A DNA stretch of 64,000 nt from an uncultured Thermoplasmata archaeon (GCA_963719945.1 CAVRDX010000002.1:1-64000); one strand, 5' to 3'. Positions 46,631 to 55,858 are shown, counted from the stretch's first letter. The notes: generated by a model not told the origin, from the sequence alone. Translations and numbers: made by a program.

Positions 46631-47281
46631 ATGGTTCGGGCATCAAGGAAGGGTGATGGAGGCGGGCAGCGCAGGCCTGTCAGAGGTGGTGTCGCACTCG
46701 CCATCCTTGTCATCATCGGTCTCATCGTCTTCTTCCTTTTTGGCGGAGAGCACGGCTATATGCATGCAGATGGCCCTCTCGCCAGTGCACTAGTGTTCGT
46801 CTTCGTTCCAAAGGCTCTGATTCTGGAAGATGATGCCAGTATTGGTCTCTATGCATTCTTTGTGGCATGCACGTTAATTGCGCTGGTGAGCGCGTTCTAT
46901 GCAGTCACCAGGAAAGAATGGACTCTGGCATGGATCTGTTCGCTATTCGGTACTGCTTTCGGCCCATTCACACTTGTGCCAATCTTGATGATTGGCACTT
47001 CGGACATATTCTTCCAGCATGATTCAATATCGGATAGACTCCAAAATCGCAAGGTGGGTCAATTCGTGAGAAAGGACCCGTTTCTAGGTGTAATTGCAGC
47101 AGTCGCTGTTGCCTTCCTTGGTGGAACATCCCTGGTTGTGATACTGGACTCCCTAACGAACAACCTAGCCCTGTCGATTCTGATTCAAGTCGGCATTCTG
47201 ATATTGATATTCTGGTCGGTCACTTTTGTGCGCTCGATAATCGATCAGAGGAAGAAAGCGATCATTTTAGAATCGGATTGA
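46631..47281 (+). CDS. Membrane protein
   Basis: About 6 TM helices. Confidence 0.65.
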   Translation: MVRASRKGDGGGQRRPVRGGVALAILVIIGLIVFFLFGGEHGYMHADGPLASALVFVFVPKALILEDDASIGLYAFFVACTLIALVSAFYAVTRKEWTLAWICSLFGTAFGPFTLVPILMIGTSDIFFQHDSISDRLQNRKVGQFVRKDPFLGVIAAVAVAFLGGTSLVVILDSLTNNLALSILIQVGILILIFWSVTFVRSIIDQRKKAIILESD

Positions 47282-47346: not shown

Positions 47347-48315
47347 ATGTCACCTGTCGAACTGTCCGGTGTCCACATCCTGCTAACCTACAAGTGCCTC
47401 TACGAATGCGACCATTGCTTCGTCTGGAGCAGCCCACGCTCGCAGGGCACGATGACCCTTGCCCAGCTCGAAGACGTCATAAGGCAGGCACATGAGATTC
47501 CTTCCGTGAAGCGCGTGTACTTCGAGGGTGGGGAACCATTCATATTCTATCCCCTCCTGCGCAGAGGAATCCAGCTCGCAAGGAAGCTCTCCCTCGAAGT
47601 CGGTGTGGTAACAAACGCATACTTCGCCACGGATGATGGTGCGGCTGACCTTTGGCTCAGACCATTGGCGGAGATGGGGATCTCTGATCTCAGCCTCAGC
47701 ACGGATGTTCATCACGGCATCGGGGAAGAGAAGGAGATGGTGCAAAGGGCGAAGAAAGCTGCTGAGAGGCTCGGGATACCAGTTGGGGTAATAGAGATCG
47801 AGGACGTCGAACAGTTCTCTTGCTCTGCACCTAGAGATGAATCGAAAGGGCAGCTCTGCTTCAGAGGCAGGGCGGCGGTAAAGCTTGCGGGAAATGTCAA
47901 GAAGAAACCATGGAAGACCTTCGATACCTGCCCCGAGGAGCCTCCGGCAATCGGCAGAGTCCATGTCGACCCCTACGGTAATGTGCTGTTCTGTCAAGGG
48001 ATATCCATCGGCAATGCATGGAAGAAGCCACTAAAGAGGATCATGTCGGAGCTGGATGCTCGGAAACATCCGATCATCGGTCCGTTGATTGAAGGCGGAC
48101 CTGCGAGGTTAGCCAAACAATTCGATGTGAAGCCAAAAAGAACGTACGCGGACGAGTGTCACATGTGCTATGAGGTCAGATGTGCACTGAGGGAGAGACG
48201 GGCAGTCAGGGAGATCTTGCTGCCGGACCAGCTGTACGGCGTGACATCTGAGGATGCTTTGCAGCCCGAGTTCTCCAAAAGGACAAGGACTTCTCTGAAG
48301 AAGAGGCAAGGATAG
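47347..48315 (+). CDS. Radical SAM protein
   Basis: CLYECDHC, FEGGEP, VTNA; C-terminal C...HVDPYG...C...CHMC. Confidence 0.9.
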   Translation: MSPVELSGVHILLTYKCLYECDHCFVWSSPRSQGTMTLAQLEDVIRQAHEIPSVKRVYFEGGEPFIFYPLLRRGIQLARKLSLEVGVVTNAYFATDDGAADLWLRPLAEMGISDLSLSTDVHHGIGEEKEMVQRAKKAAERLGIPVGVIEIEDVEQFSCSAPRDESKGQLCFRGRAAVKLAGNVKKKPWKTFDTCPEEPPAIGRVHVDPYGNVLFCQGISIGNAWKKPLKRIMSELDARKHPIIGPLIEGGPARLAKQFDVKPKRTYADECHMCYEVRCALRERRAVREILLPDQLYGVTSEDALQPEFSKRTRTSLKKRQG

Positions 48316-48362
48316 ATTCGCAAGAGTCTTTTTGTAAGCCAACCACAATTCAGCCGCCAGGG

Positions 48363-49835
48363 TTGTTGTCAGTGAAAGGGATCAAGCTCAATCAGAACTC
48401 AAGACTGAAAGTCTTGACCGATGACCAGATCGATGCTATACACGACGCCACCCTGAAAATCCTTGAGAGGACAGGTATCAGGTACGACAGCGAAGATGCC
48501 AGGAAGAGGCTTTTGGATGCAGGCGCTGCGAACCATCCCACGAGGAAAGGAGTCATCACATTCCCGAGATCCATGGTCGAGGACGCCATTAGCAAGGTCA
48601 CTCATCGCAACATGTATCCTGCTCGAGACAAGAGATGGGACATCGAGTTCGATGGCGAGCACATGTTCCCGTACGCAGGCGGAGGAGACCCGAAGATAAT
48701 AGATCTGGGGACAGGCCAAGTGAGACACTCGACCTATAACGATATCGAGATGGCAGCCAAACTCGGCGACTCACTCGAGAACAACAACTTCGCATCCAGC
48801 CTGGTGATGGCGAATGATGTCCCGCCTGAGCTGCTGGTCCTGAAGACCGTCGAGGCAGCTATGAAGAACACGGGAAAGGCGGTCACTGCATATGCCCCCG
48901 ACAAGGAAACGGTCGATTACCTTGTGAAGATGTGGGCATGCGTATCTGGAGGAACCGAGGAGCTCCGGAAGAGACCTCTGTTCAGCCTCGGCGGGTCCCC
49001 GAGCAGCCCGCTCACATACTCGGAGCACACCTGCGATGTGTTGCTTCGAAGCGTCGAGCACGGTATCCCGTTCTCCGCCCTTCCCTGCCCTATCTGCGGG
49101 GAGACGGGACCTATGACTCTGGGCGGCGCATTGGCGCAGCAGAATGCTGAACAACTAGGTGGCATCATGCTCATGCAGACGGTGACCACGAGCCTGCCCA
49201 CATACTACTCCGGAAGGGTATGCGTCATGGATCCTCGTTCAGGAAGGGACCTTTGGGGGGTCCCTGAAGAAGCACTCTTGTCTGCGGCCATAGTACAAAT
49301 CGCTCGCAGGTACGGGATGGTGGCAGACACCAACGGTATGTCATCCGACATCACCAGATGGGACATGCAGATGGGGTTCGAACAGATGATGACCGGTCTG
49401 ATACCGGCCCTGGCAGGTGCGGACAGCATATCCGGCCTCGGCAGCGGGTGGGCGAGTGCCAGCAGTCTCGAGATGATGGTCATAAACAACGAGGTCTTCA
49501 ACGATATCGCGAGGATACTCAACGGCATCCGTATCGACGAAGGGAGCCTTGCGATAGACCTGATAGATAAGGTTGGAACCATGGGCAGCTTCCTGGCAGA
49601 ACCTCACACCATGGAGAGCATCCGCGATGGAGAAGTACGCATCTCGTCGCTCTGGGACAAACGGAGTTCAGATAAAGTCACCAAGGAAGGCTTCAAGCCG
49701 ATCCAGGAAACTGCAAGAGACGTTGTGCGGAGACGACTCGAGGACCACGAACCGGAGCCATTGGATAGGGATGTGGTGAACGGGATAGATCAAGTCATCA
49801 AAGAAGCTGCCAGAACATTTCTAGGGAGATCGTAG
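48363..49835 (+). CDS. Trimethylamine methyltransferase (MttB/MtgB) family, non-pyrrolysine
   Basis: IHDATLKILE.TG, SPL.Y, GETGP.TL.GALAQQNAE, G..GSFL...HT; no in-frame TAG. Confidence 0.88.
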   Translation: MLSVKGIKLNQNSRLKVLTDDQIDAIHDATLKILERTGIRYDSEDARKRLLDAGAANHPTRKGVITFPRSMVEDAISKVTHRNMYPARDKRWDIEFDGEHMFPYAGGGDPKIIDLGTGQVRHSTYNDIEMAAKLGDSLENNNFASSLVMANDVPPELLVLKTVEAAMKNTGKAVTAYAPDKETVDYLVKMWACVSGGTEELRKRPLFSLGGSPSSPLTYSEHTCDVLLRSVEHGIPFSALPCPICGETGPMTLGGALAQQNAEQLGGIMLMQTVTTSLPTYYSGRVCVMDPRSGRDLWGVPEEALLSAAIVQIARRYGMVADTNGMSSDITRWDMQMGFEQMMTGLIPALAGADSISGLGSGWASASSLEMMVINNEVFNDIARILNGIRIDEGSLAIDLIDKVGTMGSFLAEPHTMESIRDGEVRISSLWDKRSSDKVTKEGFKPIQETARDVVRRRLEDHEPEPLDRDVVNGIDQVIKEAARTFLGRS

Positions 49836-49945
49836 ACCGTCCATTCGATTGCATTAACGAACGCCTTCCCAATCCATGAAGGATGGGCAAACCAGTATGA
49901 TATTGCTCATCGTGATGCACTGGGCTTCCCTCGGCAAGGTTATAA

Positions 49946-50350
49946 GTGGCCAAAGTGAAATCATCCTCGTCAGGGTCTGGAATGAACAAGCTAGTGGGGG
50001 CTTTGGTGACATTCGCCGGGATATGCCTGGTGATCCTCGGCGCTATTTTCATCATAGCGTGGAGCGTCGAGAATGCGATCGCTGGAGGCATGATGGTACT
50101 GATAGGCGTGGGCCTCATGTACTACATGTACAGGGTCGAGAAGATCGAGGCCGCAAAACCTCAACTCGTGTCTCAGACATTCAATGTCAAGATGTCTGGT
50201 TCAGGCGAGATGGCCCCGAAGGACATGATATGCAAATCATGTGGCGCGCCGATCACCGAGAAGAACTTGAAGGTCATCCAGGGCGGACTCATGGCCACAT
50301 GCCCGTACTGTGGCGCCGTGTTCGCGCTGCAGGAAGCTCCGAAGTGGTGA
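49946..50350 (+). CDS. Two-TM membrane protein with a C-terminal zinc ribbon
   Basis: CKSCGA...CPYCG...E.PKW; first gene of an operon. Confidence 0.75.
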   Translation: MAKVKSSSSGSGMNKLVGALVTFAGICLVILGAIFIIAWSVENAIAGGMMVLIGVGLMYYMYRVEKIEAAKPQLVSQTFNVKMSGSGEMAPKDMICKSCGAPITEKNLKVIQGGLMATCPYCGAVFALQEAPKW

Positions 50351-50366
50351 TATCATCATATCTACC

Positions 50367-52034
50367 ATGATCCGTCCCGCACTGATGTCATGTTCCATCG
50401 TCATGATACTCGTCCTTGCCATAGGCATAAGCGCTTGTCCGTTCTCCAATTCGGCCGATGCAGCGGCGACATACAGCTTCAGTGTCGAGTATGAGCGCTT
50501 GGATGTCTTCGTGCTCAAGGACGGGAGTATCGACATAGACTACTCATTCGGAATGACGAACTTCGGATATCTTGATGGAGTCGACATAGGCCTGCCCAAC
50601 AAGTACTATGACCTAGACTCGGCCGAAGCCACGATCATTGTGAACGATCAGGAGTACGCTCCCGCTCTGATACACAAATCACCTTACGTGGAAATCGGAG
50701 TGGCCGTCGAGTTCACGAGCACAGTGATGGCGTTGATCGACACATATGGCACATCATTCCAGCTGGATTTCCATATCAACAACCCGCATATGGTGTACGA
50801 GAACGAGCTCGTGGAAGGCACTGTCGGCATAGCAATGAGACCGACCTGGTTCGGCGACGCGTATCAGGTGGGTCCGACCGAGGAGCTCACTGCGAGGGTG
50901 TTCTTCCCCGATGGATTCGTGAACGTCACCGATGCCGTCTACCTCGAAGGGCAACCATGGAACGAGATAGGGATCGACCCCGGGACAGGGCTATTGGTCG
51001 CCACATGGACCGCGTCGAATGCCTATCCCGCGGGCATCGCGTCTGGCGAATTCGATTTCGGCGCGGGGTTCCCTGCAGAGTTCGTGGACAGTTATGTGCG
51101 CCATACGGTCTGGAACTCGATCGCGGACTTCTTCGCCTCACTCTTGGAACTGGTCTGCCTCTGCATACCCATCATAGCCCTTGGGGGATTCATATTCCTC
51201 ATATACATGATTGACAGGGCCAGCAAGGCCGCGAAGAGGAAGGATTACTTCAATCCGGCCATGGGAGTCGTCGGCTCGGGCCCACGGAGGGACCTCACCG
51301 CAGTAGAAGCTGCAATCGTACTCGAGAGACCTCTCGAGATGGTGGCGACCATGATACTCTTCGGATTGGTGAAGAAGGGTATGGTGAGGATAGACTCGGA
51401 TCAGAGACCGATGAAGCTGACGAAACTAGGAGCCGAGGGGGAACACACCTACGAGACCGACTACCTCAGGGGGATCGGTCCCGATGGTCAGCTGGATCGC
51501 ACACAGCTGGAGGTGACCCTTGTCGACCTGATAAAGAGGACCGAGACGAAGCTCGATGGCTTCAACTATAGACACACCAAGAATTACTATCAGGAGATAT
51601 GCTCCGCCGCGTGGAAACAGGTCAAGGATGCTGGAACCCCCGAGGAGTTCGCATCGGTCCTTTCCGACAAGCACGAGTGGATGATGCTCGACAATCACTA
51701 CGAGACGCAGATGCGACACTATTTCTTCGCCATGCCATACGTCTACGTGCCCATGACGCACTCCGTTTACGAACACACTATGCCGACAGCACAAGTGTCT
51801 CCCCAGCAGCTTGCATCCAACTACGCTACGAGCGTCAAGAACGCGAGCAACAACGTTGTCTCGAATTTCAAGTCTCTGGCATATGATATAGCTGGAAAGA
51901 CGAACCCCGTGACGACGTCCACGGGTTCGGGTTCTGGTTCGTACCTCAAAGGTGGCGGCGGATTCGGTGGATTCGGAGGAGGATGCGCGTGTGCATGTGC
52001 ATGCGCATGTGCCTGCGCTGGGGGTGGAAGATGA
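50367..52034 (+). CDS. DUF2207-like membrane protein with a C-terminal (Cys-Ala)6-GGGR tail
   Basis: Signal peptide, extracellular beta domain, TM helix, DLTAVEAA, Gly-rich linker, then CACACACACACAGGGR. Confidence 0.8.
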   Translation: MIRPALMSCSIVMILVLAIGISACPFSNSADAAATYSFSVEYERLDVFVLKDGSIDIDYSFGMTNFGYLDGVDIGLPNKYYDLDSAEATIIVNDQEYAPALIHKSPYVEIGVAVEFTSTVMALIDTYGTSFQLDFHINNPHMVYENELVEGTVGIAMRPTWFGDAYQVGPTEELTARVFFPDGFVNVTDAVYLEGQPWNEIGIDPGTGLLVATWTASNAYPAGIASGEFDFGAGFPAEFVDSYVRHTVWNSIADFFASLLELVCLCIPIIALGGFIFLIYMIDRASKAAKRKDYFNPAMGVVGSGPRRDLTAVEAAIVLERPLEMVATMILFGLVKKGMVRIDSDQRPMKLTKLGAEGEHTYETDYLRGIGPDGQLDRTQLEVTLVDLIKRTETKLDGFNYRHTKNYYQEICSAAWKQVKDAGTPEEFASVLSDKHEWMMLDNHYETQMRHYFFAMPYVYVPMTHSVYEHTMPTAQVSPQQLASNYATSVKNASNNVVSNFKSLAYDIAGKTNPVTTSTGSGSGSYLKGGGGFGGFGGGCACACACACACAGGGR

Positions 52035-53383
52035 TGCCATTCAGACTCCTTGCCTATTCACCTGAAGAACTAGGCCTCAAGCCCGGCACGTACAAGTACG
52101 ACGGACCTGGCGACCTCGCTCGTCACCGATTCCATATCAGGGTGGACAGTCAGACGAAGGGCGTGCTGATGGTGGACGCGTCGAAGCTGATCTTCCTGAA
52201 CGGTACTGCTCTCGACTACGTGAGATGCATACTCGAGGGGAAGGACGCGGACCGAACATATGCCTACATGAAACGTAGATACAAGGGTCTCAAGAAGGCC
52301 GCCGCCAGGGAAGACTATAGGTCCACCAGGGAGAGGCTTACTCGATTCGTCAAGGGCGAAGAGTCAGTCATGGACGTCATGGGACCCAACGCACCCGCAA
52401 TCGGTGCGGATGAGATGCCATCGCCATACAGGATGGACCTTGCGCTCACATACCGATGCCAGAACGACTGCGGACACTGCTACAACGCAACCAAGGAGAA
52501 GAAGGAGCTTTCGGTGAAGGAGTGGATCACCATCATAGACAAGCTCTGGGACGCAGGCATACCGCACATAGTATTCACCGGGGGAGAGCCGACCCTGTAC
52601 GACGGCCTAGATGAGCTGATAGCTCATTCTGAACTCCACGGACAGATCACAGGACTCATCTCGAACGGCCGGAGCCTCGGAAAGCCGGGCTACCTGAGTT
52701 CTCTCGTGTCCAAGGGGTTGGACCATGTCCAGATCACGGTGCTCTCGCACGAGCGAGAGACACACGATCGATTGGCAGGTGCCAAGGGCGCGTGGCAGGA
52801 GACGATCGCGGGATTGAAGGCTGCGATCGCCGAGGACATGTATGTCAGCACCAACACGACAATCATGAGATCCAATTACGCGCACGTCAAGGAGACCATG
52901 AGGTTCCTCGTCGGCCTCGGTGTGAAGAATATCGCGTTCAACAGCATCATACGGTCCGGAAAGGGCGTGCAGGCAGAAGGCGTGACATATCAAGAATTAT
53001 CATCGCTTCTGGAGGAACTCAGAGGTATAGCCTCTGAGACGGGGACGAAACTGATATGGTATTCTCCCACACCGTACTGCGAACTCAATCCGGTGAACAT
53101 GGGCCTGGGCATCAAGCAATGCACCGCCTGTTCACTGAACATGGCGGTCGAGCCCGACGGGACTGTGCTACCATGCCAGAGCTATTACGAACCTCTCGGG
53201 GACATGCTCAAGGATGATTGGTCCACCATATGGGGACATCCGCAATGCGAGCGCATCAGGAAGAGGGAGTATGTCGACGAGAAGTGCGGGAAGTGCGAGA
53301 TGCTTCAGCTGTGCGGAGGCGGATGCCCGCTTTCTGCGGCTCACGGAGACTATGTGTGCCAGGACAGATACTCATCTATGTGA
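52031..53383 (+). CDS. Radical SAM/SPASM enzyme with an N-terminal PqqD/RRE-like domain
   Basis: LNGTA RRE-like region; CQNDCGHC; FTGGEP; CTAC...PC...CGKC...CGGGC SPASM; ATGA overlap with the upstream gene. Confidence 0.88.
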   Translation: MMPFRLLAYSPEELGLKPGTYKYDGPGDLARHRFHIRVDSQTKGVLMVDASKLIFLNGTALDYVRCILEGKDADRTYAYMKRRYKGLKKAAAREDYRSTRERLTRFVKGEESVMDVMGPNAPAIGADEMPSPYRMDLALTYRCQNDCGHCYNATKEKKELSVKEWITIIDKLWDAGIPHIVFTGGEPTLYDGLDELIAHSELHGQITGLISNGRSLGKPGYLSSLVSKGLDHVQITVLSHERETHDRLAGAKGAWQETIAGLKAAIAEDMYVSTNTTIMRSNYAHVKETMRFLVGLGVKNIAFNSIIRSGKGVQAEGVTYQELSSLLEELRGIASETGTKLIWYSPTPYCELNPVNMGLGIKQCTACSLNMAVEPDGTVLPCQSYYEPLGDMLKDDWSTIWGHPQCERIRKREYVDEKCGKCEMLQLCGGGCPLSAAHGDYVCQDRYSSM

Positions 53384-54259
53384 GTCGGGTTTCTTGGCGA
53401 ACGCATGGAACACGGGGTTGAACTGGAACAAAGAGCCATCTTTTAGCGCGCGTTCCCAGATGGGCCGCAGCTCTGCAAGCCGTTCCTTGCCCTCAACGTT
53501 CTGAGCAGTCAGTTCCAGGTACCTCCATTCGGCCTCTGACTCTGCCCTCAGCTTGTCGATCCCCCATACACCTGGATGTACTCCGACCTCTGCTTCGAGG
53601 TGGCACGCTTCGAAGATGGCCCTCAACTTCCGACCGATCAGAGGATCGCCTCCTTCGGCCCTTATGCCGTCTTCAGCTATCCTGCCAAGTGGGGAGAGCT
53701 CCTGAGGGAAGTCGATCCGAGCGCCAAGGTCCGGCTCCGCAAGACACACGACCCAATGCCTGGAAATGCGAACCATCTCCGACAGAACCCTCACGGGATC
53801 GTCGACCCACAGCATAACGAAAGAGCAATAGGCCATATCGAAGGAGTCATCCTTGAAAGGCAGCGAGTGCGCATCCCCTTCTCTCACCTCTAGACCCCTG
53901 CGTCTGCCCTCGGCAACGGCTGCTGGGTCGATGTCTATTCCCTGCACATCGAACATCGGAGCTAGCAATTCCATTACGAATCCTGGCCCGCATCCGACAT
54001 CCAGAGCGGTCGGTCGCCTTTGCCCATTCCAATTGCTCAGCACCCGCTGCTCAAGTAGCCAGGTCCATGAATCCCTGAGCCAGAGTGATTGCCTCGAGAG
54101 CTGTCTATCCATATCCTTCGCAGACCAGGGCATCGAACATGAAGAGGCGTCCATGAGAGAAATCCTTTGTGGCAATCCTGGCCTATCGAACCGGTCCATC
54201 TTATGATGGGAGACATCCATCTTGGTAGATGCAGAAGACCTGTCCGTGACAAAATCCAT
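53372..54259 (-). CDS. Class I SAM-dependent methyltransferase (true start likely downstream)
   Basis: ALDVGCGPG, GIDID, GDAHSLPFKDDSFD. Confidence 0.85.
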   Translation of the reverse strand: MDFVTDRSSASTKMDVSHHKMDRFDRPGLPQRISLMDASSCSMPWSAKDMDRQLSRQSLWLRDSWTWLLEQRVLSNWNGQRRPTALDVGCGPGFVMELLAPMFDVQGIDIDPAAVAEGRRRGLEVREGDAHSLPFKDDSFDMAYCSFVMLWVDDPVRVLSEMVRISRHWVVCLAEPDLGARIDFPQELSPLGRIAEDGIRAEGGDPLIGRKLRAIFEACHLEAEVGVHPGVWGIDKLRAESEAEWRYLELTAQNVEGKERLAELRPIWERALKDGSLFQFNPVFHAFAKKPDSHR

Positions 54260-54273
54260 AACGATGGATAGGC

Positions 54274-54495
54274 ATGCGAAAGCTGAGAGGAATGACGATG
54301 AAGTGCAATAACTGCGGCTCAGAGAACCCTGAGGACCATAAATTCTGCGGCGACTGCGGCAAAGAACTGCCGGTAGCCTCTGTGGCCGATGATGATAATT
54401 CTATGAGAAAATGTAGTTCTTGTGGCCGCACTCTGACCGAGGAGACCAATGTCTGCCCATACTGCGGACGATGGGTGAAACGGTCCATGTTCTAG
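54274..54495 (+). CDS. Double zinc-ribbon protein
   Basis: CNNCG..FCGDCG, CSSCG..CPYCG. Confidence 0.75.
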   Translation: MRKLRGMTMKCNNCGSENPEDHKFCGDCGKELPVASVADDDNSMRKCSSCGRTLTEETNVCPYCGRWVKRSMF

Positions 54496-54706: not shown

Positions 54707-55858
54707 TCAGGCTGCGACCTCGATCGTGCACGATGATATCCCACCGATCAGATCCTCGTAGTCGTAGGCGGGATAGTCCTTCCAGACATCCAATGATCCC
54801 GAGACCAGGCCACTTGCAGTAATATCTAAACTGTAAGTCCCTTCATTCTTGCAGGCGCAGACTTCCCAAGTGAGCAGGACGGTATCGCCTGCGCTGAATG
54901 TCTCGAGGTCTGTCAGGTCAGGTGCCTTGCACACCTTGAGTCCGGATGATGCCTCCATGACCGCGCTGAAGCTCTCGGCAGGGAATGTCGGGAACTTATC
55001 CGATCCGAATGGTGCGAGGCACGGGTATGTAATCTCCGCCGTCACCTTGAACTTCTCACCTGGCAGGACGATCGATGGAGCTGTGATGTCTATCTCCCAT
55101 GGCGTGACGAACACTCCGCCGTACATCATGCCCGGAACGTTCCATCTCGTCGTATCGCAAGTCCAAGTATCCAAGAAGTCCGCATATTTCCACTTGATCG
55201 GCTCGAACTCAGAGTCCCATGCATTCGGGTTCGCGCTCTGCGAGGTCGAGCCCTGATAATCGTGGTCGTTCTTGAACTCCCTCGACCAGCCGTCATTGAT
55301 CAGCAGGACCCCTTCGGAGTCATCGTAGCCCACGACGACACGGTAGTGGTCCCCTGAGTACCATTCTGGAAGCCAATATACGAGCACGATCACGGGATAC
55401 CCTTGGTCGAGTATCTCCTTCATCTCATTCAGCCAGGGCTCATCGGATGCATAGTAGAATCCCGCGTATCCCATGTCCCTGGCGGTATAGCCAGTTACGA
55501 CAGAGTTCGGCCATCTCGCGCCCATGGTCGGGCTCATCGAGCTGAACTGAGCCGCTCGTGCCATATCCGGAAGTGCAGTACCTCCGCTCCTAGCCGCATT
55601 GTATATCTCTCTCTGATCCACGAACTCGCCGTAGTAGTCAAACACCATCTGCAACGATACTGCGCCGCAGCCCTTCGCGTCTATCTGTTGATAGAGCGGG
55701 ACACCGTCGATGAATGCGCTCCCAGACAGGGCTTGAGTTCCTGAGACGGGAAGCACCATCATAGCCACGATGCAGACACACACGCTCGAGATAAGAAATC
55801 GTATACGCCCAACCAGACTCGTCCTCATGCCTTCTCTCCCCCACTGAGCCGGACCCAA
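54707..55858 (-). CDS. Secreted C39-like cysteine peptidase
   Basis: VPLYQQ...GCGAVSL.MV, HYRVVVGYD, IND. Confidence 0.85.
   Translation of the reverse strand: MGPAQWGREGMRTSLVGRIRFLISSVCVCIVAMMVLPVSGTQALSGSAFIDGVPLYQQIDAKGCGAVSLQMVFDYYGEFVDQREIYNAARSGGTALPDMARAAQFSSMSPTMGARWPNSVVTGYTARDMGYAGFYYASDEPWLNEMKEILDQGYPVIVLVYWLPEWYSGDHYRVVVGYDDSEGVLLINDGWSREFKNDHDYQGSTSQSANPNAWDSEFEPIKWKYADFLDTWTCDTTRWNVPGMMYGGVFVTPWEIDITAPSIVLPGEKFKVTAEITYPCLAPFGSDKFPTFPAESFSAVMEASSGLKVCKAPDLTDLETFSAGDTVLLTWEVCACKNEGTYSLDITASGLVSGSLDVWKDYPAYDYEDLIGGISSCTIEVAA

Follow-up and report, generated by a model that had tools for sequence, protein, structure and literature searches.

Radical S-adenosylmethionine (SAM) maturases are, to our knowledge, known almost only from small secreted peptides, and the cases in which a whole protein is modified are few and recent (QhpC, CrpA). 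A 64,000-nt stretch of DNA from an uncultured Thermoplasmata archaeon (GCA_963719945.1 CAVRDX010000002.1:1-64000), called the window below, raises the question of whether such an enzyme may act on the end of a large membrane protein. In this window a gene for a membrane protein that ends in six Cys-Ala pairs is followed by a gene for a radical SAM enzyme, which has a SPASM domain and an N-terminal domain resembling the RRE (recognition element of peptides made by the ribosome and modified after translation, RiPPs). The two are accompanied by a small zinc-ribbon membrane protein (ZnR) and a methyltransferase. From comparative genomics and predicted folds we propose, with a probability of about 0.6, that the radical SAM enzyme has the cytoplasmic tail as its in-cis substrate, probably for the formation of thioether crosslinks, the specific chemistry being much less certain.

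What is conserved in the tail, and at which level? An earlier note on this DNA had described a membrane protein of about 555 residues with a Gly-rich linker and a (Cys-Ala)6 tail, and the translation reads exactly so: the C-terminus is GGGGFGGFGGG-CACACACACACA-GGGR, i.e. (CA)6 followed by GGGR, and the Cys and Ala codons at 51984-52019 are indeed tgc gcg tgt gca tgt gca tgc gca tgt gcc tgc gct. The argument drawn there from these varied codons, that the tail is selected as protein and is not a DNA microsatellite, holds well beyond the window. Tandem Repeats Finder recovers only short imperfect arrays from the tail DNA, with scores of 39-45 against a default threshold of 50, and across 77 related loci no two of the 33-nt sequences for the invariant end CACACAGGGR-stop are the same, both codons of Cys, all four of Ala and of Gly, all six of Arg and all three stops being in use. 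This codon diversity rules out a microsatellite or a ribosome-binding site as the origin of the tail. Nearly all of about 100 database homologues, whose identity ranges from 66% to 24%, terminate in (CA)n-GGGR, and GGGR is the terminus of 77 of the 78 tail open reading frames (ORFs) in 80 genomic loci, which were drawn from one-genome-per-species collections. The repeat is contiguous in Methanomassiliicoccales and other Thermoplasmatota, split as CACACACAG-CACACA-GGGR in bacteria, and longer, with some Val, in Bathyarchaeia; the source genome contains (CA)3-GGG at a single site. That the ten terminal residues stay the same in 77 loci, archaeal and bacterial alike, implies strong selection and a still undescribed modification on a membrane protein.

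Is the tail within reach of the enzyme? The AlphaFold2 (AF2) model of the tailed protein (pLDDT 80) predicts an N-terminal signal or anchor (residues 6-24), a beta-sandwich ectodomain (residues 38-236), a transmembrane helix (about residues 262-290), a cytoplasmic helical domain (residues 300-512) and a disordered tail (residues 515-555), and the modelled ectodomain is similar in structure to ribophorin I and to the N-domain of M1 aminopeptidases. Around the second transmembrane helix, 31 homologues have 17 Lys and Arg residues before it, on the outside, vs 119 after it, on the inside, which places the C-terminal half and the tail in the cytoplasm and thus within reach of the radical SAM enzyme. 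The N-terminal part is outside the cell and the C-terminal part inside. An extra transmembrane helix at residues 317-335, with which the tail would be extracellular, was considered and rejected, since this segment is short, charged and buried in a folded domain of the model. The N-terminal signal (window 50367-50450) also holds a lipobox-like I-S-A-C; its Cys is not conserved, and the signal regions of homologues usually stop before A-Q-x-Y-x-F-S.

The body of the protein diverges between homologues while its architecture is kept. About 25 residues before the repeat the family has the motif F-T-x-x-V-T-x-x-T-N-P-P-P, which reads LAYDIAGKTNP in the window; in the homologue alignment (A3) P514 is invariant and TNP conserved, and the hypervariable Gly/Ser linker comes next. 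Judged from this alignment, the leader-like TNP motif may be what the RRE recognizes. The earlier label of the protein as DUF2207-like is right insofar as weak matches exist, but the window protein itself reaches no curated threshold. It has no Pfam match to DUF2207 (PF09972 for the N-domain, PF20990 for the C-domain) and PF09972 is matched by 6 of 32 homologues, with a best E of 1.9e-5; DUF2207_C appears as a language-model look-alike with a score of 0.88, which is a lead only; and against TIGR04222 (cut-off 43 bits) the window protein scores 17.9 bits and its Leptolinea orthologue 20.5 bits. Proteins of the DUF2207/TIGR04222 kind have in common with the tailed protein a signal or anchor, a beta ectodomain, a transmembrane helix, a cytoplasmic helical domain and a low-complexity Gly-rich tail. 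In contrast, the (CA)n-GGGR end and the radical SAM partner are specific to the tailed-protein clade.

What kind of enzyme is encoded after the tail? The two genes overlap in an ATGA, as had been noticed, the TGA of the tail gene (52032-52034) sharing bases with the ATG of the radical SAM gene at 52031, and in archaeal loci generally the start of the latter overlaps or abuts the tail-gene stop. The enzyme has a CX3CX2C motif (C143/C147/C150, 52457-52480) that is invariant in 24 orthologues, with a Pfam Radical_SAM match of 78 bits, and a Pfam SPASM match of 35 bits (cut-off 21.5) over a region with seven conserved Cys (350, 364, 382, 419, 422, 428 and 432; 53078-53326). Both SPASM motifs are present, CX9-15GX4C as C364...G377...C382 and CX2CX5CX3C as C419-x2-C422-x5-C428-x3-C432, together with C350; two additional Cys are found in the archaeal orthologues. 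The RRE-like domain extends over about residues 15-110 (52073-52360). A Pfam scan of the window's own enzyme returns no significant PqqD match; the PqqD/RRE-like N-terminus claimed for it is nevertheless supported, because 15 of the 24 orthologues match Pfam PqqD (best E 2.5e-9), the AF2 model (pLDDT 83, pTM 0.85) has an N-domain with strands at residues 19-57 and three helices at residues 58-107, and the enzyme aligns full-length in structure to the RRE-bearing maturases SkfB, SuiB and CteB.

By sequence and structure together, the nearest matches of the enzyme are SkfB, SuiB, PqqE, anSME and CteB. SkfB is the best match in the PDB (sequence E 1.4e-18; structure E 1e-16 over 414 columns). The best NCBIfam profile is that of PqqE, TIGR02109, at 118 bits vs a cut-off of 381, and NirJ2, AhbD and SkfB come next; SkfB TIGR04403 reaches 87.8 bits vs 300 and StsB NF045574 74.1 bits vs 625. 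Neither AlbA NF012164 nor the CrpC family TIGR04463 is among the best 25 NCBIfam matches, the weakest of which has 55.7 bits. The conserved neighbours of the enzyme, namely the tailed protein, ZnR and the methyltransferase, do not form the context of a pyrroloquinoline quinone (PQQ) operon. All five cassette proteins of Leptolinea likewise score far below the curated cut-offs.

Do tail and enzyme occur together? Across the 80 loci the order ZnR-tailed protein-radical SAM enzyme is kept in nearly all that are sufficiently long. The module is found in many anaerobic archaea and bacteria. Carriers are Methanomassiliicoccales and other Thermoplasmatota among the archaea, and among the bacteria very many Anaerolineae and other Chloroflexota, Zixibacteria, Cloacimonadota, Edwardsbacteria, Acidobacteriota and one deltaproteobacterium, amounting to at least 318 species genomes. 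In 301 genomes sampled from the class of the window (E <= 1e-90 for the radical SAM enzyme, E <= 1e-30 for the methyltransferase), the tailed protein and the radical SAM enzyme were each found in 31, of which 30 are common to both, and the methyltransferase in 30, of which 27 also have the radical SAM enzyme. In the two genomes in which tail and enzyme are discordant, the gene sits at a contig edge. Three loci have no adjacent radical SAM gene, yet each genome carries an orthologue elsewhere (E ~1e-120), and in two of the three it stands next to the methyltransferase. The cassette of genome G034, which appeared to be unlinked, is an assembly artefact with 100-N scaffold gaps at both breakpoints. 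The co-conservation of the two genes, on which the earlier note had made its claim depend, is therefore borne out by gene order, by shared carriers and by the orthologues retained in the unlinked genomes.

The module is patchily distributed, being present in 14 of the 39 genomes of the window's family and in about half of its genus. In G099, a genome of the same genus that is 94% complete, 1.67 kb of unrelated DNA replaces window 48253-53544 between flanks of 82-86% identity (breakpoints 48252/53545; blastn, window vs L089), and only a truncated methyltransferase of the cassette is kept. This replacement indicates that the cassette is gained or lost as a block. Two genomes of the family have a methyltransferase orthologue without the tailed protein or the radical SAM enzyme (G209:C4:13793-14530 and G099:C1:50270-50962); an in-frame TAG interrupts one of the two orthologues, the 3' end of the other is replaced, and both look like remnants after cassette loss.

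Might the enzyme act on a separate peptide, or the tail be set free as one? When small ORFs (20-69 aa) between the cassette genes were clustered, no cluster was present in more than 10 of the 80 loci, and a search of short proteins for the shared tail returned only contig-end fragments of the tailed-protein family and no free (CA)n peptide. Together with the single tail in the genome, this agrees with the earlier statement that there is no small precursor ORF nearby. Alternatively, the tail may be a true RiPP core that is cleaved after modification from a very large leader and then released or exported; the leader-like motif, flexible linker and C-terminal core resemble a RiPP precursor, and a C39-like peptidase gene lies nearby, encoding a 383-aa protein (54707-55858, minus strand) with an N-terminal transmembrane segment and a Peptidase_C39_2 domain (E 3.6e-16). 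However, the 80 loci show no protease or exporter that is conserved alongside the module, which leaves nothing in support of the released peptide that the earlier note had offered as one outcome. The C39-like gene has no match in any of these loci and is kept as an 88% identical copy in the cassette-less G099, and the conservation of a 500-residue body down to 24% identity with the same architecture suggests that the whole protein is functional. Release of the tail is thus highly improbable.

Which other proteins belong with tail and enzyme? The earlier note spoke of a three-gene operon, and three consecutive plus-strand genes are present, but the module is larger, the convergent methyltransferase being a member as well: it consists of four conserved genes, five in most bacteria. 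In 77 of the 80 loci the gene immediately before that of the tailed protein encodes a ZnR orthologue. ZnR has transmembrane helices followed by a cytoplasmic CxxC-x19-CxxC zinc ribbon and a C-terminal E-x-P-K-W; of 72 orthologues, 68 have two predicted hydrophobic segments and 71 have the PKW terminus at a fixed spacing from the zinc ribbon, so that the cassette has a second invariant extreme C-terminus. The methyltransferase is adjacent in 54 of the 80 loci, convergent after the radical SAM gene in archaea and co-directional in bacteria. Most Anaerolineae loci have, between these two genes, an extra gene for a paralogue of the radical SAM enzyme, which retains the PqqD-like N-domain and from which the CX3CX2C motif and the SPASM Cys are absent in all 40 of 40 orthologues. 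This paralogue accompanies split tails in 38 of 50 loci and contiguous tails in 0 of 10, the loci being related, so that the counts are not an independent statistic.

The invariant end of ZnR means that E-x-P-K-W could be the substrate of the radical SAM enzyme instead of, or besides, the tail, e.g. for a Lys-Trp C-C crosslink of the streptide or WGK type, in which case the Cys-Ala tail would have another role. The second-best structural match is SuiB (441 aligned columns), which makes Lys-Trp crosslinks, the WgkB profile NF050035 is matched at 67.8 bits, and bacteria pair two RRE-bearing proteins with two invariant C-termini. However, the WgkB score is far under the cut-off of 650, the second RRE protein has no iron-sulfur clusters, and the radical SAM gene is translationally coupled to the tail gene and not to that of ZnR. 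In addition, the Lys and Trp of ZnR are adjacent, unlike the spaced residues of known Lys-Trp crosslinks. We therefore regard ZnR as an improbable substrate.

Does the tail need to be modified at all? Cys-X-Cys repeats are classic metal-binding motifs that could work unmodified, and with alternating Cys all thiols lie on one face of an extended strand. The tail may accordingly be a metal or iron-sulfur site, metallothionein-like or a cluster carrier, with the radical SAM enzyme and the methyltransferase acting on another target, e.g. a bound metal or cluster or a small molecule scaffolded by the tail. The best profiles of the enzyme include those of the cofactor-maturation enzymes NirJ, AhbD and PqqE, and in Leptolinea sp. 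HRD-7 a PRC-barrel/MgtE-N/CBS protein and an Nramp-family metal transporter are encoded directly after the five-gene cassette (L054:13169-15706). However, gene clustering over the 80 loci shows that the MgtE-N/CBS and Nramp genes are not a conserved part of the cassette, and both the enzyme and its dead paralogue keep an RRE domain of the peptide-binding type. An unmodified site also leaves the invariance of GGGR and of the Ala residues, and the translational coupling, unexplained. On balance such a site, the main rival of our proposal, appears unlikely.

The tail as substrate of the radical SAM enzyme has to be weighed against further difficulties besides its possible function as a plain metal site and the rival C-terminus of ZnR. 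The case is built wholly from comparative genomics and fold. The enzyme lies far below every equivalog cut-off, so that the type of reaction is unreadable from homology, and its best profiles are those of PqqE, NirJ and AhbD, not of sactisynthases. Thioethers are less commonly formed on Ala than on Asp, Glu, Asn or Gly, and any role of the methyltransferase is a guess. Co-folding of the enzyme (alignment A2) and the C-terminal 80 residues of the tailed protein (A3) in the presence of SAM and three 4Fe-4S clusters gave 0.02, 0.43 and 0.27, with a median below the 0.32 mark, an outcome that speaks neither for nor against binding. Still, of the proposal in the earlier note that the tail is the substrate, the central part stands, contradicted neither by the co-conservation of the genes nor by the search for precursor ORFs, and only its branch toward a released peptide is improbable.

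How could the module work if the tail is modified in cis? In the mechanism that we propose, the RRE would bind the conserved TNPxP motif upstream of the linker, and the linker would bring the (CA)n-GGG core to the active site. There, with only seven Cys of the SPASM domain universally conserved, an auxiliary cluster may have an open iron that a Cys of the tail ligates, while the 5'-deoxyadenosyl radical would take a hydrogen from a neighbouring Ala or Gly carbon. Thioether crosslinks of the sactionine or ranthionine type would form in this way, several per tail, and the methyltransferase may then cap some further group, such as a remaining thiol or a carboxylate. In bacteria the cluster-less paralogue that keeps its RRE would serve as a non-catalytic partner. 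The protein would thereby permanently carry, at the membrane's inner face, a chemically rigid structure of thioether or metal-binding kind. More specifically, the radical SAM enzyme and the methyltransferase may together make a polycyclic thioether or other unprecedented structure that stays bound to the membrane protein as a metal, redox or signalling centre, a suggestion that we offer tentatively and hold at somewhat less than even odds.

Table 1. Positions of the module and its parts in the window.
Feature	Position	Strand	Remarks
ZnR small membrane protein, 134 aa	49946-50350	+	alternative start possibly ATG at 49982
Tailed membrane protein, 555 aa	50367-52034	+	gene 2
Leader-like motif, residues 504-514	51876-51908	+	from alignment of homologues
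Hypervariable Gly/Ser-rich flexible linker, residues 515-539	51909-51983	+	from alignment; pLDDT < 50
(Cys-Ala)6-Gly-Gly-Gly-Arg tail, residues 540-555; proposed core substrate	51984-52031	+	
RRE-radical SAM-SPASM enzyme, 450 aa	52031-53383	+	ATG overlaps upstream stop
Class I SAM-dependent methyltransferase	53372-54259	-	convergent with radical SAM gene, 12-nt overlap with its end; true start probably ~54199
Segment with MttB homologue, ZnR, tailed protein, radical SAM enzyme and methyltransferase 3' end; 5.3 kb	48253-53544	unstranded	replaced in same-genus genome G099

Several other genes lie close to the cassette in the window. A second radical SAM protein of 322 aa (47347-48315, plus strand), with a score of 56 bits against the YydG epimerase profile (cut-off 300) and a marginal SPASM match, comes after a 216-aa multi-transmembrane protein (46631-47281); both are kept in G099 at 82-84% identity, which places them outside the module. 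A homologue of the MttB family of methyltransferases (48363-49835, plus strand) is encoded by an unbroken 490-aa frame with no in-frame TAG. It scores 383 bits vs the 525-bit cut-off of the pyrrolysine-containing trimethylamine enzyme and is thus probably a member without pyrrolysine; it lies inside the 5.3-kb segment that is absent from G099, and two bacterial loci (L013, L036) have MttB homologues as well, at a distance of 4-6 kb downstream from the cassette. The second radical SAM protein, the MttB homologue and the C39-like peptidase were considered as members of the module and rejected, none of them being conserved beside the cassette in other loci; the genes for the first and the last are both still present in G099. 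Finally, a 73-aa double zinc-ribbon ORF (54274-54495, plus strand) is divergent from the methyltransferase and has 86% nucleotide identity in G099.

What would the module mean if the proposal is true? It would represent a new post-translational modification. In the more specific form of a bound polycyclic or other unprecedented structure it would amount to a new class of protein-borne RiPP chemistry, common to archaea and numerous phyla of bacteria, the latter with a pseudo-enzyme as partner. The proposal would also provide a function for a DUF2207-like clade and an account of paired pseudo-radical-SAM proteins. Since one carrier, Leptolinea sp. HRD-7, is in culture and a short C-terminal segment is predicted to be the substrate, the chemistry is directly testable. 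Our literature searches returned no paper that describes the module, and no curated profile covers it; we consider it to be new in that a RiPP-type radical SAM maturation has its core fused to a large membrane protein and is served by dedicated partners.

How, then, does the module compare with systems already described? It is like SkfB, CteB, SuiB and AlbA in combining an RRE with radical SAM and SPASM/twitch domains and in having a Cys-rich core at the C-terminal end of the substrate. Unlike in these systems, the substrate here would be the tail of a 555-aa membrane protein, there is no protease or transporter, ZnR and a methyltransferase are added, together with a dead paralogue in bacteria, and the scores are far below the curated cut-offs. 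The ACGX system (TIGR04340) is, by its name, a radical SAM/SPASM enzyme paired with a short Ala-Cys-containing repeat, but the match of 63 bits is far below the cut-off of 400.

A parallel in the core itself is offered by StsA/StsB/StsC. StsB forms three sactionines, nested and joining Cys to Gly, on a core of the pattern C-x-C-x-C ... G-x-G-x-G (PMC10288494), so that this system, too, has alternating Cys and Gly acceptors; StsB is related to MftC, and full processing needs an RRE (PMC10288494). However, StsA is a small free precursor that relies on a discrete RRE protein and forms a nested hairpin (PMC10288494), whereas (CA)n is followed directly by GGG in the tail, and the ring topology would thus differ from that of StsA.

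Modification of a whole protein has precedents in QhpC and CrpA. The radical SAM enzyme QhpD crosslinks QhpC of quinohemoprotein amine dehydrogenase, and these are intra-protein crosslinks in a subunit that remains in the functional complex (PMC7876137). In contrast to the tailed protein, QhpC is a small periplasmic enzyme subunit in which a quinone cofactor is formed after the crosslinks (PMC7876137), and its system has no membrane protein, repeat tail or homologous partners. CrpC of Methanococcus voltae, another archaeal RRE-radical SAM-SPASM enzyme that acts on a full-size Cys-rich protein, installs thioethers on the 28-kDa CrpA (PMC13692751). It belongs to another radical SAM family (TIGR04463), and CrpA differs in being soluble and in having ten 17-residue repeats, C-x-x-Q/D motifs and an N-terminal leader (PMC13692751). 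The Cys filter of the CrpA study (>=5% for proteins >250 aa) would exclude the 555-aa tailed protein (PMC13692751). Nevertheless, the SPASM domain of CrpC has seven Cys, and the argument has been made that an iron is thereby open to a Cys of the substrate (PMC13692751), as the mechanism proposed here would have it for the Cys-Ala tail.

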